A stretch of DNA of 64,000 nucleotides from Sumerlaeia bacterium (GTDB lineage Bacteria > Sumerlaeota > Sumerlaeia > SLMS01 > JAHLLQ01), in contig JAVJSW010000001.1 in NCBI GenBank assembly GCA_040219255.1, forward strand, positions 37,250 to 101,249, written 5' to 3'. The position numbers were made by a program, and so were the translations under genes. Positions within the stretch are counted from its first letter, which is position 1. Each line of letters starts with the position of its first letter. Positions 1 to 30,943 of the stretch are shown here, in pieces. The notes beneath the pieces are model-generated. The model was not told the origin of the DNA, searched no databases, and worked only from the letters and a program-made list of their open reading frames with translations.

Positions 1-503
1 CCTTGATCCCTTCGTCGGCGGCGCGGCGGGACATCTCGGCGTAGAAGCCGGCCGGCACGCCGGGGGGCAGGCTGCCGCTCGCCACCAGGAAGTCGGGTTT
101 GTCGGCGCCTTCTTCGCGGCCGAGAACGGCGGCGATGGCGTGGTCGAGTTCTTCGCGGGTCATTTCCGCGCCGGGCGTGTTGAAGCGGAACTGGCGGTTG
201 GTGGAGGTCTCCAGCACCGTCAGGTTTTCGCGGGTGAGGCCGTGGATGTCGATGCGGTGCTTGTCGAGGCCCGCTTCCTCGAGGAGATTGGCGAGTAACT
301 GGCCCGTCGGCCCGCCAGAGGTGTAGACGGTTTTCGATGTACCGCCGAGTTGCAGGATGGCGCGGGAGACGTTCAGGCCGCCGCCGCCGGCTTCGAAGCG
401 GGGCTTGCCGCACCGCAGCTTCTTTTCGTCCACCACGTGGTCCACTTCCACGGACTTATCGATGGCGGGGTTCAGGGTCAGGGTCAGAATGGATTGCTGC
501 ATG
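1..503 (-). CDS. PfkB-family sugar kinase (1-phosphofructokinase/tagatose-6-P kinase-like), 5' part only (gene continues beyond window start)
   Basis: Reverse-strand translation from ATG at 503: MQQSILTLTLNPAIDKSVEVDHVV...GGGGLNVSRAIL... matches N-terminal signature of PfkB/FruK kinases (TLNP.ID, GGKG-N-V motif). Not in ORF track because it runs off the window. Confidence 0.75.
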
Positions 504-6092: not shown

Positions 6093-7880
6093 TTGCTGAT
6101 GAATTCCAAAATTCTCTCCTGCGCTCTGTCGAGCGCACTGCTGATTCCTTCTTGCCTAATGGCCCAATGGCCCGGCTTCGCGACCCGGGTTCTCTATTCC
6201 ACAGCCAACGATCCCACGGATATCGTGACGGCCGATTTCGATGGTGATGGAATCCTGGATATCGCGACGGCCGACGCCGCGCTGTCGAATGTGAGCGTAC
6301 GACTCGGCGATGGAGACGGGACCTTTGGGGGCCGCGCGAACTTTGCCACCATCAACCTGCCGGTCTCGATATTCGCCGCCGATTTGGACGGGGATGACAT
6401 CCTCGATCTGGTCACCGCCAACAACTCACAGGACGTTCTGTGCATCCTGATCGGCAACGGCGATGGCACATTCCAGTCCTATTATACGGTGGCCACGGGG
6501 AATCTGGCGGCCGATGTGCAGGCTGGCGATTTCGACGGCGACCTGGTGATGGATCTGGCAATCGTCAATCAAACCGACAACGACATTTCCATCCGGCTCG
6601 GCAATGGTGACGGGACCTTCGGCGCAGCCACAGACTATGCGACCCAGACAACACCGAGGCGGCTTTTCATCGCCGAACTGAGCGGCGACTCTGACCTGGA
6701 TATCGCGGTTTCCAACGAAGTCGGAGACAGCGTGTCCGTCTTCATCGGCAATGGCGATGGAACCTTCGCGAACGCCGTGAACTATTCCACCGGCAACCGC
6801 CCCTGGAATGTGCACGCGGCCGATCTGAATGGCGACGGCTTGCGGGACTTGATCCTGCCACTGGTCGATCCCGACACCGTTTCTATCCTGCTGAACAATG
6901 GCGGCGGTGTCTTCGGAGCACCGACGACTTACTCCACCGGCAATGGTCCACAGGGCGTTGACGCGGCGGACTTTGACGGCGATGGCAATTTGGACGTGGC
7001 GGTGGCGGTCGGCAGCGCCTCGTCGGTGTCGGTGCTCCTGGGCAACGGCAACGGAACGTTGCAGGCCGCGCAGACCTTCGCCTCCGGAGCCTCCGGGCCA
7101 CAGAACCTGGCGGTTGGCGATTTCGACGCCGATGGCTCAATCGATTTGGCTTCGGCCAATTCAGGCTTTGCCGATACATTTTCGATCTACATCAACCTGG
7201 CCGAGCCCAGCCTGGATTACTCGCCAGCTTCTCTCGCATTTGGTGGGATTGAACTCGGCACCGGACCCAGCACCGAGACCATGGTTCTGACCAATGATGG
7301 CTCGGCGCTGCTCATCACGACAGCGACCTTGACCAACGATGGCGGGGGCGTTTTCGCGCTGAGCGAGGTTCCCGTGTCTCCACTGACGGCGGGGTCCACC
7401 ACCACTCTGGCAGTCACTTTCGACCCCGATGGTCTCACCACCTACACGGGGCAAGTGACCCTGGAAACGAATCTCGCGAGCAGCCCGACGATCACGTTGG
7501 CGATCTCTGGCGAGGGCATCGACACGATGCCTCCGAGTACTCAAATCACAGGGCCTTCTTCCGGCACCCTGACCCAGCCTTCGCCCACCTTCGATGTCAC
7601 CTGGACCGGTGACGACACGCCCGGCGGCAGTGGTCTGGCGACGGTAGAGCTGTTCTATAACTTCAGCGCCGCCAAGGGTGCGCCGCTCACCAGCTATGGC
7701 GTCTTCGCCAGTTCCCCGATCGTTTTCGACACCGGCACCACCGGCGGCGACGGCACCTACGAACTCTTCCTGGCGGGGACAGACGCCGCCGGAAACACGG
7801 AGCCGGTGACGGCCTCGGCGGAAGTGATCGTCACCTTCAACGATACGAGCGGCGTGGGCGGCTGGGACCAGTTGGAGTAA
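6093..7880 (+). CDS. Secreted FG-GAP/VCBS-repeat beta-propeller protein with C-terminal Ig-like domains
   Basis: 595 aa; signal peptide; about 7 repeats of (A)DFDGDG..D/LNGDG..D.. ; C-terminal Thr/Gly-rich beta-domains. Confidence 0.75.
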   Translation: MLMNSKILSCALSSALLIPSCLMAQWPGFATRVLYSTANDPTDIVTADFDGDGILDIATADAALSNVSVRLGDGDGTFGGRANFATINLPVSIFAADLDGDDILDLVTANNSQDVLCILIGNGDGTFQSYYTVATGNLAADVQAGDFDGDLVMDLAIVNQTDNDISIRLGNGDGTFGAATDYATQTTPRRLFIAELSGDSDLDIAVSNEVGDSVSVFIGNGDGTFANAVNYSTGNRPWNVHAADLNGDGLRDLILPLVDPDTVSILLNNGGGVFGAPTTYSTGNGPQGVDAADFDGDGNLDVAVAVGSASSVSVLLGNGNGTLQAAQTFASGASGPQNLAVGDFDADGSIDLASANSGFADTFSIYINLAEPSLDYSPASLAFGGIELGTGPSTETMVLTNDGSALLITTATLTNDGGGVFALSEVPVSPLTAGSTTTLAVTFDPDGLTTYTGQVTLETNLASSPTITLAISGEGIDTMPPSTQITGPSSGTLTQPSPTFDVTWTGDDTPGGSGLATVELFYNFSAAKGAPLTSYGVFASSPIVFDTGTTGGDGTYELFLAGTDAAGNTEPVTASAEVIVTFNDTSGVGGWDQLE

Positions 7881-21820: not shown

Positions 21821-23992
21821 GTGCCAGTTGACGAACGCGACCGGGAGACCGTTACTACAGTCCTGAATGGCGTTCGGAGGCCTCCCGCAATTTTCCCTCG
21901 TTCTCTGTCTCTTCTTCACTTACGGAAATTCTGCCTCCTGACTGCGACCGCTCTCCTGCCGGCTGCGGCGGCGTGGCCGGGCGAGGGTCTCACGGCCCAG
22001 GCGCAATGGACCGGCGCGACCAGCGGCCTGCAGCTCGGCATGGCCTTGGCCGGCGTCGGCGATTTCAACGGCGACGGCCTGATGGATTTCGCCGCCGGGG
22101 CGCCCGGCTTCGACGCCGATACGGGGGCTGCGGGTCTGATCCTCGGCGGCACCAGTTCTCTTCCGAACCCCATCGGGCCGGATACGCTGACCGGCGCCAA
22201 CGGCTTTTGGGCCCGCGCCAGCGACCCCCGCGAGCGGGCCGGAACCGACGTGGCCGCCGCCGGTGACGTCAACGGCGACGGCTTCGCCGATTTGCTCATC
22301 GGATCGGCCTACGCCCGGGGCTTCCGGGGCGCCGCTTACCTGATCTTCGGCAGCGCCGCCGCCTTTCCCCGCGCCTTCGAACTCGACCTCATCGGCGCAC
22401 GCCAGGGCACCGCCGAAATCACCCTCGGCACAGTCATGCCGGGCGATACGCTGAGCGACCGCATGGGCACCGCCGTGGCGGGAATCGGCGACTTCAACGG
22501 CGATGGCTACGGCGATTTCGCCATCACGGCGGCACTGGCACAGGTGGGGGACGAGATTTTCGCCGGCCGGACCTTCGTGCTCTTCGGCCGCGAGAACTTC
22601 ACCGGTCAACTCTCGCCCTTCGACTTGCTCCCCGCCCGTGGCGGCGACGGGTCCGAAGGCTTCGTCCTCAATGGCGCCTTGTCTTACGATCAAGCCGGGC
22701 AAGCCATCGCCGGTCTTGGCGATATCAACGGCGATGGCTTCGCTGATTTCGCCGTGGGGGCCCCCTATACCGACGCCACCGATCTGGGCACGGAAGGCAA
22801 GGTGTTCGTCCTATTCGGCCGGCCAAGCGTCCTGATGCCCGAGTCCACCCTCGGCGCCCTCTCCCCCGCCGAAGGCTTTGTCGTCGCCAGTTCCATCCCC
22901 GAAGACCGCATCGGGTTCGCCGTCGCCGCTGCTGGCGACGTCAACGGCGATGGGCTCGAAGATTTCCTGATCGGCGCCCCGCGCGCCGACGGACGAGACG
23001 GCGCCCTGGTGGCCGCCGGAAAGGTCTACATCGTCTTTGGCCGCAGCGTCTTTCCCTCGCGCATCGATGCCGCAGCGAGCCTGCTCAGCATGGAGGGCGC
23101 CAGTGATCAGGACTTCTTTGCCCAGGCCGTGACCGGAGTGGGCGATTGGACCGGCGATGGTTTCGCGGATATTCTGATCGGCGCGCCCCGCGTGGACTCG
23201 CCAGATCGCCTGCTGCTGGAATTGGGGCAGACCGCCCTCATCCCTGGCGCCGCTTCGACCGGTGCTATTGGGCCAATCGCGTCCACCCTGACCGGTACCG
23301 CCGAGCGCAGTCTCCTGGGACAGAGCCTCGCCCTGATCGGCGATCACGATGGCGACGGCCGCTTCGCTTTCCTGGCCGGAGCCCCCACCTCCCCAGGCCA
23401 GAACGCTTTGCCCCAGGCGGGCGCCGTTATCGTCGTTAGCGAACCCGCAGGCCTCGCGGCCGACGGCCAACGCGTGCTCTCGCCCGCAAACGCCGCGTTC
23501 CTGCCGGTGGGTTTTGCTGGCGGGGCCAGCGCCATCGCACCCCGCACCGCTCTCCACGCCCGCGCCATCGGAGGAACGACGCCGGTAACCCTCAACGCCC
23601 GCCGCGAAGCCCAAGCCCCACGGAACCTGCCCGATGCGACGCCGGTGCGGTGGCGCCTGGAAGCAAGCGATCCGGCGCGGCGTCTGGAAATCCGCGTGGC
23701 GTTGACCGCCGCCGAAGTCGCCGGACTCCTGGAGTCGCGGCTGGCCCTCTTCTCGGCACCCGCCGAGGACGGGCCCTGGACGCCAGTCGCCGGAGCGGTT
23801 CGCGTCGGCGGCCGCCTGCAATGGCAGGGAACCGTGACCGCGACCCCCGTCTGGCTCGCTATCGCAGAGCGCCAAAGCGCCGTCGTGCGACAGGAAATCG
23901 TCCGCTTTCTCCTCGGCATTCAGGCCTACCGCGACGCCCTCGACGTAAACCGAGATGGCGTCGTGGACAGCGCCGACATGACCGGTTTGTAG
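21821..23992 (+). CDS. Secreted FG-GAP repeat (integrin-alpha-like beta-propeller) protein
   Basis: Signal peptide (LLTATALLPAAAAWP); at least 7 canonical FG-GAP repeats (GDFNGDGLMDFAAGAP, GDVNGDGFADLLIGSA, GDINGDGFADFAVGAP ...); C-terminal dockerin-like DVNRDGVVDSADM. True start probably a GTG/TTG near 21900. Confidence 0.75.
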   Translation: MPVDERDRETVTTVLNGVRRPPAIFPRSLSLLHLRKFCLLTATALLPAAAAWPGEGLTAQAQWTGATSGLQLGMALAGVGDFNGDGLMDFAAGAPGFDADTGAAGLILGGTSSLPNPIGPDTLTGANGFWARASDPRERAGTDVAAAGDVNGDGFADLLIGSAYARGFRGAAYLIFGSAAAFPRAFELDLIGARQGTAEITLGTVMPGDTLSDRMGTAVAGIGDFNGDGYGDFAITAALAQVGDEIFAGRTFVLFGRENFTGQLSPFDLLPARGGDGSEGFVLNGALSYDQAGQAIAGLGDINGDGFADFAVGAPYTDATDLGTEGKVFVLFGRPSVLMPESTLGALSPAEGFVVASSIPEDRIGFAVAAAGDVNGDGLEDFLIGAPRADGRDGALVAAGKVYIVFGRSVFPSRIDAAASLLSMEGASDQDFFAQAVTGVGDWTGDGFADILIGAPRVDSPDRLLLELGQTALIPGAASTGAIGPIASTLTGTAERSLLGQSLALIGDHDGDGRFAFLAGAPTSPGQNALPQAGAVIVVSEPAGLAADGQRVLSPANAAFLPVGFAGGASAIAPRTALHARAIGGTTPVTLNARREAQAPRNLPDATPVRWRLEASDPARRLEIRVALTAAEVAGLLESRLALFSAPAEDGPWTPVAGAVRVGGRLQWQGTVTATPVWLAIAERQSAVVRQEIVRFLLGIQAYRDALDVNRDGVVDSADMTGL

Positions 23993-24086: not shown

Positions 24087-24662
24087 ATGGCCACCAAGAA
24101 AAAAACCGACACCAAATCCGCCGCGGCCCCGACCAAGCCCCGCCGCGCCCAGACCGATATGGAAGAAAATCCGATCGGATTGCCGCAGGATTACTGCGAA
24201 GACATGGTGCCCGAGTTGGACAAGCTCCTCTCGACCGAATACACCCTACTGCACCAGTACCACAAGCATCACTGGCTGGTGAACGGCCCGCAGTTCCGCG
24301 ATCTGCATCTCTTCTACCAGGAGGCCTACGAGGCGCTCTTCGCAAAGGTCGACGACATCGCCGAACGCGTGACACACCTAGGCGGGTTCCCGACCTGCGA
24401 ACCGGCCAACATGCAGAAGAAGTCGATCATCGACCACGAACCGGAAGGTCTCTTCTCGGTCCGCGACATGCTGGCTCGCGACAAGGCGGCGGAAATCACC
24501 GTCGCGCAGAATCTGCGCAAAATGATCGCCTTCGCCCGCGACCACCAGGACTTTGGCACGGTCCGCCTGCTGGAGAAAGTTCTCCTCGGCGGCGAAGACC
24601 GCGCCCATCACATCGATCACTTCCTGGAGGAAGACTCGCTGGAAGAAGGCCGCGAGGACTGA
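24087..24662 (+). CDS. dps: Dps (DNA-binding ferritin-like starvation protein)
   Basis: 191 aa; Lys-rich N-tail, ferroxidase-centre residues (HW..GP.F..LH..F.E...D..AER). Confidence 0.85.
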   Translation: MATKKKTDTKSAAAPTKPRRAQTDMEENPIGLPQDYCEDMVPELDKLLSTEYTLLHQYHKHHWLVNGPQFRDLHLFYQEAYEALFAKVDDIAERVTHLGGFPTCEPANMQKKSIIDHEPEGLFSVRDMLARDKAAEITVAQNLRKMIAFARDHQDFGTVRLLEKVLLGGEDRAHHIDHFLEEDSLEEGRED

Positions 24663-24757: not shown

Positions 24758-27700
24758 TCAGCCCCCGCCCCCACCGACTTGCGCCAGCAAGCCGGTCGCC
24801 TTGCGGTGCGCGCCGTCCAACGCCGCGATGATCGCCGACAGCTCATTGCGCGTCAGGCTGGCGCCCTCGCGGCTTTCCACCAGCAGAAGCGTATCCTCGC
24901 GCAGGGCGAAGCTGACCGGTAGAATCTCGGAGTTGAAATCGAGCAGCACCCGGTACAAATCCGGCCCGGCGGCGCCGTTCAGCGCCCCCACCTCCGCCTC
25001 CAGATAGAACCGCTCGCCCTCGATCCGTAGCCGCACCGGCAGGCCGCCGTCGCGTTCCAGCAGGTACTCGGTGCGAGAGACTTCGCGGACGATAAACCCA
25101 CTGCCTTCAAGGAACCGGCGCAGCGAACCGGCCTGGTTGAATTCGCCTTCCTTGGGCGACCAGACGAATTTGTTCTCGCTCGGCGCTGGCGGCGTGGGAG
25201 CGGACGCCGGGGCGCGCTCGGGAATCACGGCCATGGCCAGGCTGGTCAGGATCTCGTGCAATTGGGCCAGGCTCTCCGGCGGGAACGTCGCCCGCAGATC
25301 GCCGGAAATCGGCGCGGGCGCGGCGGCCTGCGGCGCTTCAGAGCGCGTGGAGGCCGCCTCGGCGAGCGCCGCCTTCAAATCCGCCAGTCCCGTCTGCAAT
25401 CCCGCCAGGGCCTCCGGCGCGAATTCCGCCCGCACCGGCCGGTCCGATTCGGACTGCGCCTGGCGCATCGCGTCCAGGGCCAACTTCAATTCCGCCAGCG
25501 CTTCGCGCACCGGACCGAGGCTTTCGCCCTCGAGCGTCGCCCGCACCTCCTGCGGCCCCGTCGGGCGGCTTTGCTCGACCCGGTCCGCCAACTGCGTCAG
25601 GCCCCCCGCGATGCCCGCGTTCAGGCCGCCAACGCCCTCCGACAAATCGTTCAGCACGCCCATGATCTGGGTCATGCTGTCGGCTTGGCCGCCGCCGATG
25701 CCGCGGAACTTCTGGTTCCGGCGGAAGGTGTCGCAGATTTCCGCCCAGCGCTCGCGATCGCCCGGCTGTTCAAAGCCAAACGTCAGCTTGAAATTCAGCA
25801 GGTTCGCCTCGGCGCCGGTTGTGAGCGTCTGCGCCTCCTGATCGTAGTGCGAGAAAATCAGCGTCTTCAGCTCCGCATCGTTCATCACCGGCAGCACCTT
25901 CTCCGCCAGCTTGTTCATGTTGCGATAGGAGCCCTGGAGCTTGAACGGCGGCTGGGTGCGGAATTCGTCGGCTTGGGCGGCGCTCTCGATGTACATTTCG
26001 TTGATGCGCAGAATGACGTCGCGCACCGCCATCAGCTTCTTCAGCACGTCCACGTATTCGCTGATTTCGGTCGCGCTGTGGTTCGCTTCGAAATCCACGC
26101 CTTCGCGCGAACCGGTCTCGGCGATGCGCAGAATACCGTGCAGATCCTTGTGGCTCTTGGCCGACAACCGCGCCAGCGAGGCGTTCGAGGTCATGGCGTT
26201 TTCGATGTAGGACAGTTCGAACGCCGCCCGCGTGTCGCCAATGATGTCGCCCAGATTATACGTGTCGGCGCGGTTGGCCAGCATGTCGGGAATCTGGAAC
26301 TTTTCGCCGCTCTCGGTGTAGGGATTGCCGGCCATGATGACGCAGACTTTCCGCCCGCGCAGGTCATAGGTTTTCGTGCGGCCCTTGTACACGCCCTCGA
26401 TCTTGCGCTGGGCGTCGCAGAGGCTGATGAATTTCTGCAAGAATTCCGGGTTACAGTGCTGAATATCGTCGAGATAGATCATCACGTTGTCGCCCATTTC
26501 GAGCGACAGGTTCAGCTTCTCCAACTCCTGACGCGCTGTGGCGTTGGGGGCCTCCACCGGGTCCAGGCTGGTGACGTGGTGGCCGATGGCTGGACCATTG
26601 ATTTTCATGAAGATAATGCCGAGCCGGTTCGCGATGTACTCCATCAGCGTCGTCTTACCATAGCCCGGCGGCGAAATCAGCAGCAGCATGCCCATCCGAT
26701 CGGTGCGAGTATTCGCACCCACCGTCCCCATTTGTTTCGCCAGGTTGTCGCCGATCAGCGGCAGATAAACCTGATCCAGCAGCTTGTTGCGCACGAAGCT
26801 GGACAAGATGCGGGGCTTGAATTCTTCGAGCCGCAGTTGCTCGCGGAAGCGCTCGGCGCTGCGTTTCTTCGCCTCCTGGAACGTGCGGAACATCGGCCCC
26901 ACGGTGCGGTCGTAGTGGGCAAGGCGGCTCATGAATTCCGGATAGCTGAGCCCATAGCGGCCCTCCGCGATGCGGCTGTGCGAACCCAGCATGCCCTCTA
27001 ATTCCCGCGTGATCGAAGCCGACAGCACGCGCCGCTTCTCGAACGACCCGGTGAAGCAAAGCACCGCCGCTTCATCCAGGTACGGCCGCAGCGTTTCGGC
27101 CTCCTTCGCCTTCTCCAGATACCCCGCCAGCCATGCCCGCACCAGCGCGAAAGTCCCCACCGGATCGGCCTCCGCACCGGCCAACGTTTCCTCGAAGGCT
27201 TTGGCGCCATTGGCCTTTTTCAGGTGTGCGGTGAAGCCCTCGAAGAGCTTGGCGGCCTCCGGCGCGATCACGAAATCTTCGCCTGCCGTCAGCTCGAAAT
27301 ACAGATACTCAGCGCCTTCGCGGGCGGCCTCGGCGGGAAAAAGGGCCGTCGTCTCGGCGAACGCCACGAGCTGTTCCTCGAGCGGCGCCAGGAACCGCCC
27401 GCGGTCCAGCCGGTGCGGCAGCACCCGCAGAATCGCCCGCACACCCCGGAGTTGCTGGGCGAGGCGCCCCTTCAGTTCCCCATCGCCAAAGCGCCGGAAC
27501 CACATCTGCGCGCACGCCCGCGAAGCCGTCGGGTAGCGCAGCAGGCCAACCGCCTGATTCATCTGCGCCAGCGCCCGCACGATCTTCGCCGCGTCACCGT
27601 CGTGGACGCCCTTGACGTAGCCCTCGGCGTAGCGCGGGCTCGCGAACTTCTGCACCGCGTCCAGCAGCGCCGCGTCCTCCATCACCGCCAATTCGGCCAC

Positions 27701-30508
27701 CGGCGGTTGCGCGCCCGATTCGCTGGCCTTCAGGAACTGATAAGCCAGATATTCGGCGCGATAGACATTATTGTTTTCGGACACGATTTCCTGCGCCCAA
27801 ACCGCCCGGGTCTCGTCCAATTCCGGATCGGACGCCATTTCATAGAAGTTCGTTCCGGTGATGTGGTAATAGATCTTGCCATCGCGAATGACCGTCGAAA
27901 GATCCAAAGGTTGCGTGTTGACGCTAAATTTCTGTTTTCCGAACTGGATGACATCGCCACCGTCGGCGTACAATTCCAGTTTGTCCTTCAGTTGACGAAG
28001 GGCGTCTTCCTTGATGGTTTTCAACCGGCTTTGAATTTCGTCGGATTTGACCGAGTCGCCCAGGTCCCGCAGTTTCTCGATCGTGTCGCGCACTTTATCA
28101 ATCATCAAATCGGTGGCGAAGTAACTGTTGATTTCGTCCACCGACTTCATGCCGCGAGCGCGATTTTCGACGCCCTTCAGGATGCGGTCCGCCGCCCCCT
28201 GGAGCGTGACCGCCCGCTTCTGGCGGGCTTCCATCAGCGACGTCTTCTTGCTCTCGAACGCCTGATAAATCTCTTCCCGCTTGGTGGAAAGCTCCGTCAC
28301 GAATTCATCGTAATCGGCAAACTTGCCTTCCAGCTCCTCGACCTGGACGAGTAACTTCGTCAGGTACTCGTCGCACTTCTCCGGTGTGTCGCAAAGGTCC
28401 ATGAAGTTCACGACGCTCTGGCTGACGAGCTTGATTTGCGATCCGAACTCCGCGACCGCTTCCGCGCTGCCCAATTCCTTTTTCTTGTTTGTCAAGGCGG
28501 CGCGGACCTGATTGACCTTCTGGAAAATCGCGGAAATCGCATCGATGATTTGGGTCGTCTTCGTCGAATCGTCGATTTTCAAATTCCCGACGATTTCGAT
28601 CAACAATTCGAGCTGCCCGCTGATTTCGTGAATCGCCTCTTCATGCTCGCGAGCTTCCGTGACTTTCGTCAATTTCGGAATCGCCGCCTTCTCCTCCGCG
28701 ACTTTCTCTTCGTAGATATCGAGGGCGTTTGGCTGGAGCAAGAACTCCACCGTTTTCTCTGAGACCCCGTCGCTCTGCTCGGCGACCTGCTTCTCCAGCG
28801 CTTCCACGTGCGGCAAATCCACATAGCGGAGGTCCTTGAGCGAAATCACCTCGCCGCGCAGCAAACGCAATTCATTCAGCCCCGCCACATAGCCATCCAC
28901 CGCGGGCCATTGCCGGCCGCGCAGGCTCCCAAGAATCTCTTCCGCTTTCTTTGTCGTTTCGCGGACTTTCGTTTCCGTCTGCTTGCGAAGCGCCGTGACT
29001 TTTTCGAACTCGTCGATGGCCGTGCCGGCGCTCCTGCGGATTTGCTCCAGCACTTCCTTTAAATTGAAGAGCTCGCCCTCGCCCACCCAAAAATACGAGT
29101 CCGTGATATCCGTGGTGTTCTTCACCAAGTCCAGATACAGACTCTCGTAAGGCGTTTCGCGGCGGCACAGCTTGATGACTTCCCAGCATTCCGCCATCGC
29201 TCGCACAACTTCTTTGTTTCCAATTTTGTAGAGGCGCGAATCGCCCTTTTGAGGAAGCTCGAAATTCGGCCCCACATACGGGGTCTGCCACACCTGCACG
29301 GGATGGTGCTTTTGCGGCTCGATCTGATCGCCGAAGTACACCATTTCTCCGTTTTCGAAAATCGAATAACCCTGGCCGACAATCGGTGTCGCGACCCGCT
29401 GCTCGATCATGTTGTACGACAACAGAATATACACGCCGCTCGCCCTGTTGTGAAACACGAACAGGTGATCTTCGCCGTTGGCCGATGGCACCCGCCGCTC
29501 GAACAGCATTTCCTTCAGACCATGCTCGAACTGCTTGTGCTCGCCATTGACCAGGTAATAACCACTGCTAAAGATAATTCCGTGATCGTCCGGCAGAAGA
29601 ACGCAAGAATGCTGGATCGCATCCACGCGCCGCGCTTCCTTGATCTTGTCGTTATAGATGATATACCGATGATCTTTCTCCTGGTAAGGCTTGATCTTCA
29701 GCAATATCAGCGGCCCCACCACGGCGTAGGAAATCTCGGCGTCGTCCAGCACCTGGTCGGCGTTTTCCACCGGTTCCCGATAAATACCCTCACCCGACTC
29801 CGTATTGTCTTCCACCTTGATGGTCAAATCCCCGCCAACGGTTTCCACGAAAACTCGGTCTTCGATGGAAATGTGCGGGTGTTTCCCTTCGCGGTGCAGG
29901 TCGCGGTGCGTACGCTTCCAGGTGAACTCGTGCTGCGGCGGGTACTTGAACTCGTGATCGCTGCGGTTGTCCAGGTACGTCAACCCGTCCCCCTGAATCG
30001 CCCACTTGAAGGTCTTGATGTCCGTCGGCCGCTTGCCCACCTGGAAAACCATGAACAGGTGCGGCCCGATAATGGCGAATCGCGAGAACGTCGTTTCCTT
30101 GTAATACTTGTAGAGGTTGTTGAAATCCTCCTCGAACCGCTTGTCATCGATCAGGCTCAAATCCGCCGTGTGAAACTGGCGCTCCCGGTATTCGTAAACG
30201 GCGAAAACGTCCTTGAGCTCCGTCGTGCTCTTCAGACCGAAATGGACATTGTAGCCAAAGATAAACCGGGTTCCCACCGGCACCATATCGCGGGCGATGC
30301 AGTTATGCTCCGTCGTGATCCGCGCCCGGTCCAGGACCTGCAAATCGATCGAGCCAAAGGTGTCCTTCCGCACCGCGTTCAGCTTGTTGACGCGGTCCTG
30401 CAAATCCTTCGCCTGCGCCGCGAGACGATTGCGGATGATCTCGTAGGTGCCGCCTTCGAGCTGTGCTTGATCCTGTTGCGCCTGCGATTCTTTTTCAACG
30501 TCCGCCAT
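24758..30508 (-). CDS. Giant (1916 aa) uncharacterised protein: aromatic-rich N-domain + about 700-aa coiled coil + single AAA_5 (dynein/MoxR/McrB-class) ATPase module + C-terminal YbjN-like domain
   Basis: Walker A LLLISPPGYGKTTLMEYIANRLG, Walker B VMIYLDDIQHCNPEFLQKF, sensor-1-like KVCVIMAGNPYT; heptad-rich region about 500-1200; C-terminus FVWSPKEGEFNQAGSLRRFLEGSGFIV...RFYLEAEV...LLDFNSEI matches YbjN/T3SS-chaperone-like fold; RBS GGGGAAAGAGAGA before ATG; GC lower than neighbouring genes. Confidence 0.8.
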   Translation of the reverse strand: MADVEKESQAQQDQAQLEGGTYEIIRNRLAAQAKDLQDRVNKLNAVRKDTFGSIDLQVLDRARITTEHNCIARDMVPVGTRFIFGYNVHFGLKSTTELKDVFAVYEYRERQFHTADLSLIDDKRFEEDFNNLYKYYKETTFSRFAIIGPHLFMVFQVGKRPTDIKTFKWAIQGDGLTYLDNRSDHEFKYPPQHEFTWKRTHRDLHREGKHPHISIEDRVFVETVGGDLTIKVEDNTESGEGIYREPVENADQVLDDAEISYAVVGPLILLKIKPYQEKDHRYIIYNDKIKEARRVDAIQHSCVLLPDDHGIIFSSGYYLVNGEHKQFEHGLKEMLFERRVPSANGEDHLFVFHNRASGVYILLSYNMIEQRVATPIVGQGYSIFENGEMVYFGDQIEPQKHHPVQVWQTPYVGPNFELPQKGDSRLYKIGNKEVVRAMAECWEVIKLCRRETPYESLYLDLVKNTTDITDSYFWVGEGELFNLKEVLEQIRRSAGTAIDEFEKVTALRKQTETKVRETTKKAEEILGSLRGRQWPAVDGYVAGLNELRLLRGEVISLKDLRYVDLPHVEALEKQVAEQSDGVSEKTVEFLLQPNALDIYEEKVAEEKAAIPKLTKVTEAREHEEAIHEISGQLELLIEIVGNLKIDDSTKTTQIIDAISAIFQKVNQVRAALTNKKKELGSAEAVAEFGSQIKLVSQSVVNFMDLCDTPEKCDEYLTKLLVQVEELEGKFADYDEFVTELSTKREEIYQAFESKKTSLMEARQKRAVTLQGAADRILKGVENRARGMKSVDEINSYFATDLMIDKVRDTIEKLRDLGDSVKSDEIQSRLKTIKEDALRQLKDKLELYADGGDVIQFGKQKFSVNTQPLDLSTVIRDGKIYYHITGTNFYEMASDPELDETRAVWAQEIVSENNNVYRAEYLAYQFLKASESGAQPPVAELAVMEDAALLDAVQKFASPRYAEGYVKGVHDGDAAKIVRALAQMNQAVGLLRYPTASRACAQMWFRRFGDGELKGRLAQQLRGVRAILRVLPHRLDRGRFLAPLEEQLVAFAETTALFPAEAAREGAEYLYFELTAGEDFVIAPEAAKLFEGFTAHLKKANGAKAFEETLAGAEADPVGTFALVRAWLAGYLEKAKEAETLRPYLDEAAVLCFTGSFEKRRVLSASITRELEGMLGSHSRIAEGRYGLSYPEFMSRLAHYDRTVGPMFRTFQEAKKRSAERFREQLRLEEFKPRILSSFVRNKLLDQVYLPLIGDNLAKQMGTVGANTRTDRMGMLLLISPPGYGKTTLMEYIANRLGIIFMKINGPAIGHHVTSLDPVEAPNATARQELEKLNLSLEMGDNVMIYLDDIQHCNPEFLQKFISLCDAQRKIEGVYKGRTKTYDLRGRKVCVIMAGNPYTESGEKFQIPDMLANRADTYNLGDIIGDTRAAFELSYIENAMTSNASLARLSAKSHKDLHGILRIAETGSREGVDFEANHSATEISEYVDVLKKLMAVRDVILRINEMYIESAAQADEFRTQPPFKLQGSYRNMNKLAEKVLPVMNDAELKTLIFSHYDQEAQTLTTGAEANLLNFKLTFGFEQPGDRERWAEICDTFRRNQKFRGIGGGQADSMTQIMGVLNDLSEGVGGLNAGIAGGLTQLADRVEQSRPTGPQEVRATLEGESLGPVREALAELKLALDAMRQAQSESDRPVRAEFAPEALAGLQTGLADLKAALAEAASTRSEAPQAAAPAPISGDLRATFPPESLAQLHEILTSLAMAVIPERAPASAPTPPAPSENKFVWSPKEGEFNQAGSLRRFLEGSGFIVREVSRTEYLLERDGGLPVRLRIEGERFYLEAEVGALNGAAGPDLYRVLLDFNSEILPVSFALREDTLLLVESREGASLTRNELSAIIAALDGAHRKATGLLAQVGGGGG

Positions 30509-30900
30509 GGTTGTCTCTCTTTCCCCATTCTGGCCTCGGTGGCCAATTCGTCATTTTTTTTGGCGAGATAAAGATTGTGTAAGGACAAGGCCGCTGTGGT
30601 TTCTTTCCACATAATGATCCAGCGCGAGTAGCAAATTCTCTCGCTTGCCAGATAGAGGTACAAAAGCAATCCGGCTATAGTCCCCATCATATGGTATTCT
30701 GGATAAACAAGTACCCAAAGAAATCCAACTGTCACTGCGATAGGAACCACAAAAGCCCATTTGTAACGCTTCCAGTTCTTCCGCGTTTGAAAACAGCTCT
30801 TGATAAAAGGAATCTGCTCCTCGGTGACACCTAGCCTGGGATTCACAACCAATGCGAGTTCCTGACTGCTTGGTTCTTCGAGTGTGCTGTTGGGTGTCAC
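30379..30900 (-). CDS. Small hypothetical 2-TM membrane protein encoded in a low-GC (about 43%) patch; 3' end overlaps start of giant ATPase gene
   Basis: 173-aa ORF; TM segments WAFVVPIAVTVGFLWVLVY and GTIAGLLLYLYLASERI; Arg-rich tail is read-through into 24758..30508 in another frame; could instead be non-coding spacer. Confidence 0.3.
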   Translation of the reverse strand: MTPNSTLEEPSSQELALVVNPRLGVTEEQIPFIKSCFQTRKNWKRYKWAFVVPIAVTVGFLWVLVYPEYHMMGTIAGLLLYLYLASERICYSRWIIMWKETTAALSLHNLYLAKKNDELATEARMGKERQPWRTLKKNRRRNRIKHSSKAAPTRSSAIVSRRRRRICRTASTS

Positions 30901-30943
30901 CGAGTACGATTTCCTTTCGGGTCCGGCTGGGCGGTTTGGGGGA

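Follow-up and report, generated by a model that had tools for sequence, protein, structure and literature searches.

A stretch of 64,000 nucleotides from contig JAVJSW010000001.1 of a Sumerlaeia bacterium, analysed here at its full length and referred to as the window, encodes a giant AAA+ ATPase of 1916 amino acids (aa), whose C-terminus carries a domain resembling CesT/Tir-type chaperones. The gene is the third and last of a conserved operon, in which it is preceded by genes for a YqiJ/NfeD-like membrane protein and a flotillin-like protein. New here is the rare fusion of the CesT/Tir-like domain to the ATPase; the protein family and the operon were known already, but are experimentally uncharacterised. 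We propose, with a probability of roughly 45%, that the ATPase works as a MoxR-like hexamer which remodels membrane assemblies of flotillin/PspA.

The C-terminus of the ATPase bears a fused CesT/Tir-like domain

In the AlphaFold2 model, the tail of the protein (aa 1788–1912) is composed of secondary structure elements in the order alpha-beta-beta-beta-beta-alpha-beta-beta-alpha. Pfam searches with the last 127 residues yielded matches to CesT_Tir_1 (E 1.3e-4), TY-Chap1 and CesT, all of them under the curated cut-offs (22 bits on CesT_Tir_1, the cut-off being 27), while a scan of the whole protein placed CesT_Tir_1 at aa 1825–1898 (E 0.0056). The tails of two homologues, P0002 and P0083, match CesT_Tir_1 as well, with a best E of 2.9e-6. 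A profile of these three tails was searched against 1.84 billion representative proteins (clustered at 50% identity) and found 59 proteins. Fifty-eight of them are stand-alone proteins of ~138 aa, ranging from 68 to 213 aa (best E 2.9e-32), and the one exception, P0179 with 1776 aa, turned out to be a DUF3686 ATPase sharing 42% identity with the window ATPase. Five of ten stand-alone relatives that were scanned reach 31–39 bits on CesT_Tir_1 and thereby exceed the cut-off, and two of these five also touch DUF2170/YjfI. A PspA_IM30 gene directly follows the gene of the stand-alone relative in all three contigs that could be read, within operons of the spermine-synthase/DUF350 type. Finally, hhalign matched the tail-family profile to the CesT protein of the Bacteroidota operon described below (97.5% probability, E 6.5e-12, 108 columns). 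Because its relatives match CesT_Tir_1, adjoin PspA_IM30 and match the operon CesT, the tail is, as judged by homology, specifically a member of the PspA-partner CesT/Tir family. The original prediction, which was made from the sequence of the window alone, had described a YbjN-like tail with the chaperone fold of type III secretion systems (T3SS); this is correct at the superfamily level, as both the alpha-beta-beta-beta-alpha-beta-beta-alpha fold of these chaperones and homology to the family were found.

Elsewhere, chaperones of the CesT_Tir/YjfI type are free proteins of ~135 aa. The covalent attachment to an ATPase distinguishes the window domain from YjfI/DUF2170 with its partner YjfJ (PspA), from CesT_Tir_1-PspA pairs, from T3SS class I chaperones and from YbjN; no T3SS is involved in the window system. 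CesT/Tir-type chaperones are typically dimers. The fusion is rare: the tail is present in three of the 120 closest homologues, and a single protein among the 59 representatives found with the tail profile is a CesT-fused ATPase. Nevertheless, two or more divergent lineages of the ATPase family possess it. Sequence searches with the tail alone or with linker and tail returned no match, the query's own protein included, which is probably due to low-complexity sequence swamping the word-index candidates.

The linker in front of the tail has features of its own. At aa 1655–1765 (~25210–25545), and likewise in the linkers of P0002 and P0083, an amphipathic motif, (V/L)RAxFxPExLxxL, is repeated two to three times, exemplified by FAPEALAGL and FPPESLAQL in the window ATPase and by FEPETLVHL, FAPETIDQL and FTLEAIEAL in P0002. 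This motif is ~25 times commoner in tails than in cores and occurs in 8 of 116 homologue tails, including those of P0001 and P0002. The chaperone-like domain might bind it as a ligand within the same molecule. In most family members of ~1800 aa (e.g. P0024, P0028 and P0118) the C-terminal ~60 aa form a different conserved helical tail (VLxxQFxLMxxWxxP...), and the Bacteroidota members have no tail at all.

A second, unrelated ATPase is tied to the CesT_Tir_1-PspA pair in a metagenomic operon of the spermine-synthase/DUF350 type (L087, 11146–12495; also L088). There, pspA is followed by the gene of a 449-aa ATPase, a classical AAA protein (PF00004 plus AAA_lid_6).

The ATPase is encoded in a conserved operon with flotillin-like and YqiJ-like genes

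Conservation of the operon was assessed in 66 loci for which 3.2 kb or more were available upstream. In 63 of these loci the ATPase gene is preceded on the same strand by a flotillin-like gene and in 61 by a YqiJ-like gene, the conserved order being YqiJ/NfeD-like, flotillin-like, ATPase. In the window, the intact 704-aa neighbour gave no Pfam match, even at E <= 10; after removal of the coiled coil, its first 240 residues matched Band_7/SPFH with an E of 5.8e-12. The 241-aa membrane protein has a weak YqiJ_N match (E 0.014), and its family profile gave weak matches in the PDB, i.e. YuaF (2k14, E 0.24) and a stomatin operon partner (3wwv, E 1.6).

The operon has already been described from comparative genomics by Ravi et al. 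2024 (mSystems, PMC11237479). These authors reported the combination of a CesT/Tir-PspA gene pair with three other genes, including the one of the 241-aa type, which they named YqiJ/YuaF; they found abbreviated operons lacking pspA to be more widespread, and they proposed chaperone-like, ESCRT-analogous membrane dynamics. Their operon contains the same protein family in the same order, YqiJ-like, flotillin-like and ATPase, and the window locus corresponds to the abbreviated version without pspA. It differs in that the CesT/Tir-like unit forms the C-terminal end of the ATPase itself rather than being encoded by a separate gene beside pspA, and a CesT-ATPase fusion is not mentioned in Ravi et al. 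2024. Both the operon and this earlier description had escaped the original prediction.

Genes upstream of the operon were counted in 58 loci with at least 7.5 kb of upstream sequence. This revealed pspA in 18 and cesT in 17 loci, directly before yqiJ in the loci listed; the Pontibacter locus exemplifies the arrangement cesT-pspA upstream of yqiJ-flotillin-ATPase in Bacteroidota. The well-studied megaplasmid pQBR103 of P. fluorescens SBW25 (NC_009444.1, 84437–97641; L095) carries a longer run of genes, all on one strand, which are annotated as YjfI, PspA/IM30, rhomboid, DUF2491, DUF350, DUF1190 and glutathionylspermidine synthase. Three further genes complete this run, coding for a hypothetical protein that we read as YqiJ-like, an SPFH protein and a 'DNA repair ATPase'. 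Judged from gene order and homology, the link to PspA rests on three independent lines, namely cesT-pspA upstream of the operon in Bacteroidota, the pQBR103 run and the tail fusion.

The pQBR103 run is the most complete version of the operon that we have seen and offers a convenient experimental entry point. Proteus mirabilis, Vibrio campbellii, Pontibacter and Hymenobacter are tractable carriers of the operon as well.

The ATPase is a member of the DUF3686 family with a single AAA module

The open reading frame predicted originally is real: it is complete, starts with an ATG at 30508 and encodes 1916 aa (coordinates are given in Table 1). The start fits the N-termini of the homologues, all of which begin 15–20 residues ahead of the conserved LEGGTYEIIRNRL. 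DUF3686 (PF12458, 'ATPase involved in DNA repair') matches aa 35–473 over profile positions 1–448 of 448 (635 bits, E 5e-191), and DUF7902 (PF25472) matches aa 594–678 (87 bits, E 7e-25). The protein thus belongs to a large named Pfam family, which the original prediction had overlooked. DUF3686, DUF7902 and AAA together define a family of more than 5700 homologues from at least 501 species. PF12458 and PF25472 are found in each of the 120 closest homologues, which are 50–59% identical over 84–100% of the query, and PF00004 in 119 of them. Homologues ~55% identical to the window ATPase occur across Planctomycetota, Bacteroidota, Acidobacteriota, Desulfobacterota and Verrucomicrobiota. DUF7902 and the single C-terminal AAA module follow in the order typical of the family, the conserved core amounts to ~1640 aa, and the AAA core is 86% identical to that of 60 homologues. 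No mention of DUF3686, PF12458 or DUF7902 was found in the papers searched. In many Planctomycetota, Bacteroidota and related phyla, members of the family rank with the biggest and best-conserved proteins, and the database name of the family is misleading.

Two AlphaFold2 models, calculated on alignments of 61 sequences, span the whole chain (aa 1–880, predicted local distance difference test score (pLDDT) 85.6; aa 850–1916, pLDDT 80.4). The Walker A, Walker B and AGNP motifs recognised originally are all present, the stretch IYLDDIQHCNPEFLQ at aa 1344–1358 containing Walker B. In a regular-expression scan of the 1916-aa protein, Walker A and Walker B each turned up once, and neither model contains a second AAA-like alpha/beta domain. 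Domain parsing therefore upholds the claim of a single AAA module far towards the C-terminus, its only P-loop core covering aa 1275–1418, and concatenated modules as in midasin and dynein can be rejected. The aromatic-rich beta domain predicted at the N-terminus exists as well, with 12.4% F/W/Y in aa 57–408. Its modelled strands may form an atypical propeller. The Ala/Gly-rich linker was also foreseen correctly; it contains 26.7% A+G and 9.1% P, and its helices are modelled at low confidence. According to the models, a small beta domain (aa 850–914) and an all-alpha domain (aa 917–1153) had been missed. The latter is 37% identical to homologues, the lowest conservation within the core.

Table 1. 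Features of the ATPase and of the two upstream operon genes. Domain boundaries refer to the AlphaFold2 models; positions are those of the window.
Feature	Residues (aa)	Position	Strand	Remarks
ATPase open reading frame	1-1916	24758..30508	-	complete, stop codon included; 100% identical to P0001 'MAG: DNA repair ATPase [Sumerlaeia bacterium]'
Disordered N-terminus	1-16			AlphaFold2 model
Helix	19-51			AlphaFold2 model
Beta-rich DUF3686 core	57-408	29285..30340	-	28 strands in ~7 groups of 4
Helical region	425-846	27971..29236	-	spectrin-like helical bundles; includes DUF7902 (aa 594-678)
Small five-stranded beta domain	850-914	27767..27961	-	AlphaFold2 model, pLDDT 77-95
All-alpha domain	917-1153	27050..27760	-	AlphaFold2 model; ~13 helices, 237 residues
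Beta-hairpin and long helix ahead of ATPase module	1167-1230	26819..27010	-	AlphaFold2 model
AAA+ module	1242-1600	25709..26785	-	alpha/beta core 1275-1418, then helical lid and extension
Walker A	1279-1287	26648..26674	-	SPPGYGKTT
Walker B	1344-1348	26465..26479	-	IYLDD; acidic pair D-D, not D-E
AGNP	1393-1396	26321..26332	-	end of strand 4, sensor-1 position
Ala/Gly/Pro-rich linker	1601-1787	25148..25708	-	low confidence; repeated amphipathic-helix motifs (VRAEFAPEALAGL, LRATFPPESLAQL)
CesT/Tir/YjfI-like domain	1788-1912	24773..25147	-	C-terminal; T3SS-chaperone fold
Flotillin-like protein, 704 aa		30944..33058	-	upstream of ATPase; transmembrane segment, SPFH/Band_7, long Glu/Ala-rich coiled coil
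YqiJ/YuaF (NfeD)-like membrane protein, 241 aa		33065..33790	-	first operon gene; weak matches

The AAA+ module is MoxR/dynein-like in fold and derived in sequence

The closest structural neighbours of the modelled AAA+ module belong to the MoxR/dynein/midasin clade, in the core and the lid alike, CbbQ and NorQ being the best. A beta-hairpin at aa 1369–1382 (strands 1369–1374 and 1377–1382) between helix 3 and strand 4 represents the pre-sensor-1 hairpin. N1395 in sensor 1 and R1413 at the arginine-finger position are invariant in the aligned homologues, and a long helix (aa 1479–1511) preceding the invariant QGSYR motif may be a pre-sensor-II insert. The helix-2 insert hairpin of this clade is not evident in the secondary-structure string of the model, between strand 2 and helix 2.

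At the sequence level, AAA (PF00004) covers aa 1275–1395 with 29.9 bits, RuvB_N aa 1264–1310 with 24.0 bits and AAA_5 aa 1275–1400 with 23.8 bits (cut-off 22). The AAA_5 score is not diagnostic, because a sigma-54 activator encoded in the same window reaches 30.7 bits. When the family profile of the AAA region was compared by hhalign with single reference proteins, the scores were 64.7 for RuvB, 55.0 for ClpX, 51.5 for Lon, 33.4 for RavA (20% probability) and 23.5 for an NtrC-like protein. Among PDB sequences, neither the whole protein nor the AAA-region profile found a match beyond the stretch of Walker A and strand 2 in p97 and RuvB, which is uninformative for the clade, and NCBIfam and PADLOC returned P-loop-level matches only. 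Hence, the sequence evidence does not separate the AAA+ clades, and it is by its modelled fold that the module is MoxR/dynein-like; its sequence is highly derived, and it has no vWA partner. The placement in the AAA_5 clade, originally deduced from motifs, holds for the fold; motifs and sequence by themselves do not establish it, PF00004 and RuvB_N outscoring AAA_5.

Sequence similarity to the MoxR family (CbbQ, NorQ, RavA) and to the AAA_5 proteins dynein and midasin is marginal. Unlike these proteins, the ATPase combines a single module with ~1240 aa of unrelated N-terminal domains, has the D-D pair in Walker B and lacks a vWA/MIDAS partner. A role as McrB-like restriction component was rejected, as the McrB GTPase fold was not the nearest neighbour and neither an N-terminal DNA-binding domain nor an adjacent McrC was found. 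With regard to the known families considered at the outset, the ATPase is therefore a DUF3686 member, but neither McrB-like nor midasin-like.

A putative remodeller of flotillin and PspA assemblies

In the proposed model, the YqiJ/NfeD-like membrane protein, the flotillin-like SPFH scaffold and the giant cytoplasmic ATPase would constitute one module. Like AAA+ proteins with a single module in general, the ATPase would form hexamers, and its N-terminal part, comprising the DUF3686 beta domain, the spectrin-like bundles and the all-alpha domain, would act as docking and lever apparatus. ATP would be used to assemble, remodel or disassemble sub-membrane polymers, i.e. the flotillin cage and/or ESCRT-III-like PspA/IM30, whose assemblies may be recruited to the cage under envelope stress. 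The strongest new clue is the fused domain. In other genomes, the CesT/Tir adaptor has a gene of its own, with pspA as the next gene. Its fusion to the ATPase argues that the adaptor normally accompanying PspA works physically with the ATPase, and that the CesT/Tir/YjfI-type unit, held on a flexible linker, would hand PspA or another client directly to it. Read as a 'Rosetta stone', the fusion would make the ATPase an ATP-driven remodeller of PspA/ESCRT-III-like polymers, a non-homologous analogue of Vps4 that works at the cytoplasmic membrane, within or next to a flotillin cage, although we hold this narrower version to be doubtful.

The resemblance to Vps4 and ESCRT-III is a functional analogy only: in both cases, an AAA+ ATPase is genetically coupled to a polymer of the ESCRT-III superfamily, here PspA. 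Scaffolds of the SPFH type are also combined with NfeD-type partners in HflK/C-FtsH, QmcA-YbbJ, YqiK-YqiJ and FloA/FloT-NfeD; the set in the window is encoded together with an AAA+ ATPase. In comparison to FtsH, this ATPase has neither a transmembrane anchor nor a protease domain, belongs to a different AAA+ clade and is ~3 times larger. The proposal bears on the question posed by Ravi et al. 2024 of how PspA/IM30 polymers form and come apart when there is no Vps4-type ATPase, and also on the role of bacterial flotillin cages. Through the fusion, the ATPase is tied physically to a PspA adaptor, a connection that is specific and open to experiment.

Several observations weigh against a remodelling role. 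We found no experimental work on any family member or on the operon in the papers searched, and it is from the fusion and the order of genes alone that binding of flotillin or PspA is inferred. The CesT tail is missing in most of the family and was absent from all of 80 genome loci, and many ATPase loci are not adjacent to pspA. A PspA gene is missing from the 64-kb window and also from the contigs of the other tailed homologues, P0002 and P0083, on which the flotillin gene is kept. The loop after strand 2 of the AAA+ module (GPAIGHxVTS) has no aromatic pore-loop of the kind that threading unfoldases typically possess, and the acidic pair in Walker B is D-D instead of D-E. MoxR-type ATPases are normally paired with a vWA partner, but none is encoded by the window genes between 17.9 and 38.3 kb and none is conserved in homologous loci. 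Finally, no known propeller was found to match the N-terminal beta domain.

Alternative functions

Quality control of membrane proteins after the manner of HflK/C-FtsH would be a different task for the same set of proteins. The flotillin cage would corral damaged or unfolded membrane proteins, and the ATPase would extract or hold them by means of its CesT-like domain, without degradation. HflKC-FtsH is a membrane assembly built on the logic of SPFH plus AAA+, which SPFH, NfeD and AAA+ proteins follow here as well, and CesT-type chaperones bind extended polypeptides. The conservation of the operon and the preference of the ATPase profile for RuvB, ClpX and Lon in hhalign are compatible with this idea, too. 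We nevertheless consider it unlikely: the ATPase has no protease domain and no adjoining protease gene, the canonical aromatic pore loop is absent, and the PspA linkage of the tail's closest relatives suggests PspA, not clients in general.

A canonical MoxR-type maturation chaperone would insert cofactors or activate partners via a vWA/MIDAS adaptor, as do CbbQ-CbbO, NorQ-NorD and RavA-ViaA. Although CbbQ and NorQ are the best structural matches, this function is distinctly improbable, given that no vWA protein is encoded near the operon in the window and none recurs across the loci, that the hhalign match to RavA is weak (score 33), and that MoxR systems offer nothing comparable to an N-terminal extension of 1240 aa or to flotillin partners.

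Giant multidomain ATPases beside membrane proteins are common in defence islands, and the ATPase could accordingly be pictured as NTPase sensor of an anti-phage or abortive-infection module, coupled to membrane-acting proteins. Its presence on some megaplasmids, including pQBR103, would suit this picture, as would the Pontibacter locus, whose flanks contain an integrase, group II intron reverse transcriptases and transposases. Such a role is very improbable. The PADLOC matches have E >= 9e-4, and the extreme conservation of the AAA core, as well as of the whole protein (~55% across phyla), is unlike that of fast-evolving defence genes. The genes flanking the operon in the window are housekeeping genes, no nuclease, toxin or other effector domain was detected in the ATPase, and of 72,556 plasmid records 13 contain a homologue, the majority of these being megaplasmids or chromids, while no phage record does.

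A function in DNA repair, suggested by the name of PF12458, by the NCBI product names derived from it and by the weak RuvB_N match limited to the P-loop, is scarcely credible, since scans of domain libraries revealed no helicase domain and, as already stated in the original prediction along with the warning that this name would be unsupported, no DNA-binding, nuclease or vWA domain, and since similarity to RuvB spans Walker A and strand 2 only, the conserved partners are membrane proteins and no support was found in the literature.

Base composition and genomic surroundings of the operon

The low content of guanine plus cytosine (GC) had been taken as a hint at horizontal acquisition. Compared with the 33 other genes of the window, the GC content of the ATPase gene is indeed lower (0.602 vs. 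~0.64), and some segments fall below 50%. The effect is minor, though, as it concerns 1.5% of the 300-nt windows (minimum 0.48) and none of the 600-nt windows. Resolved by codon position, the values are 0.625 vs. 0.648 +/- 0.040 for GC1, 0.384 vs. 0.440 +/- 0.051 for GC2 and 0.796 vs. 0.825 +/- 0.038 for GC3, the latter dropping to 0.71–0.775 over aa 201–1000. The deficit thus lies mainly at codon position 2 and reflects amino-acid composition. Relative synonymous codon usage correlates with that of the pooled neighbours at 0.874 (N-terminal half 0.81, C-terminal half 0.89), as compared to 0.72–0.96 for the neighbours themselves. With both GC3 and codon usage near or within the range of the neighbours, recent horizontal acquisition is not supported. 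An ancient transfer between phyla may have occurred, given ~55% identity across phyla.

The remaining genes of the window are ordinary and encode, among others, a Dps/ferritin, an FG-GAP repeat protein, an SBF transporter, a SpoIIE phosphatase, a histidine kinase, a TPP enzyme, a DEAD-box helicase and an ornithine carbamoyltransferase. The Dps/ferritin-like gene (24087–24662, + strand) is convergent with the ATPase gene and located directly downstream of it. A ferritin-family gene (L090, 18090–18575) is also present 7.6 kb downstream in the P0083 locus; its occurrence near two tailed ATPases is probably a coincidence. Proteins with FG-GAP/VCBS repeats are encoded at 21821–23992 (+ strand, 723 aa) and 6093–7880 (+ strand, 595 aa). 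The former gene lies two genes downstream of the ATPase gene on the opposite strand and is not conserved beside the operon elsewhere.

The flotillin and ATPase genes are separated by an AT-rich gap of 435 nt (30509–30943) with a GC content of 0.485 vs. ~0.64 for the genome. The gap contains no promoter-like site and no Rfam match, and terminator-like sites are within the expectation from shuffled sequences. An open reading frame of 173 aa with two predicted transmembrane segments (30379–30900, - strand) overlaps the start of the ATPase gene by 130 nt. It was rejected as a component of the system, being absent from the equivalent gaps in other genomes, with a GC3 of 0.53 and a codon usage uncorrelated with that of the neighbours (r = 0.03); it may be an insertion remnant or non-coding. 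In Desulfonema and Symmachiella, the gap between the two genes (L004, 9559–10000, and L003, 9714–10000) harbours repeated elements resembling repetitive extragenic palindromic sequences: two near-identical copies in L004, translating as ...RSNALRWN..PDAL.PVTRR.SVG, and a single similar-looking element in L003.

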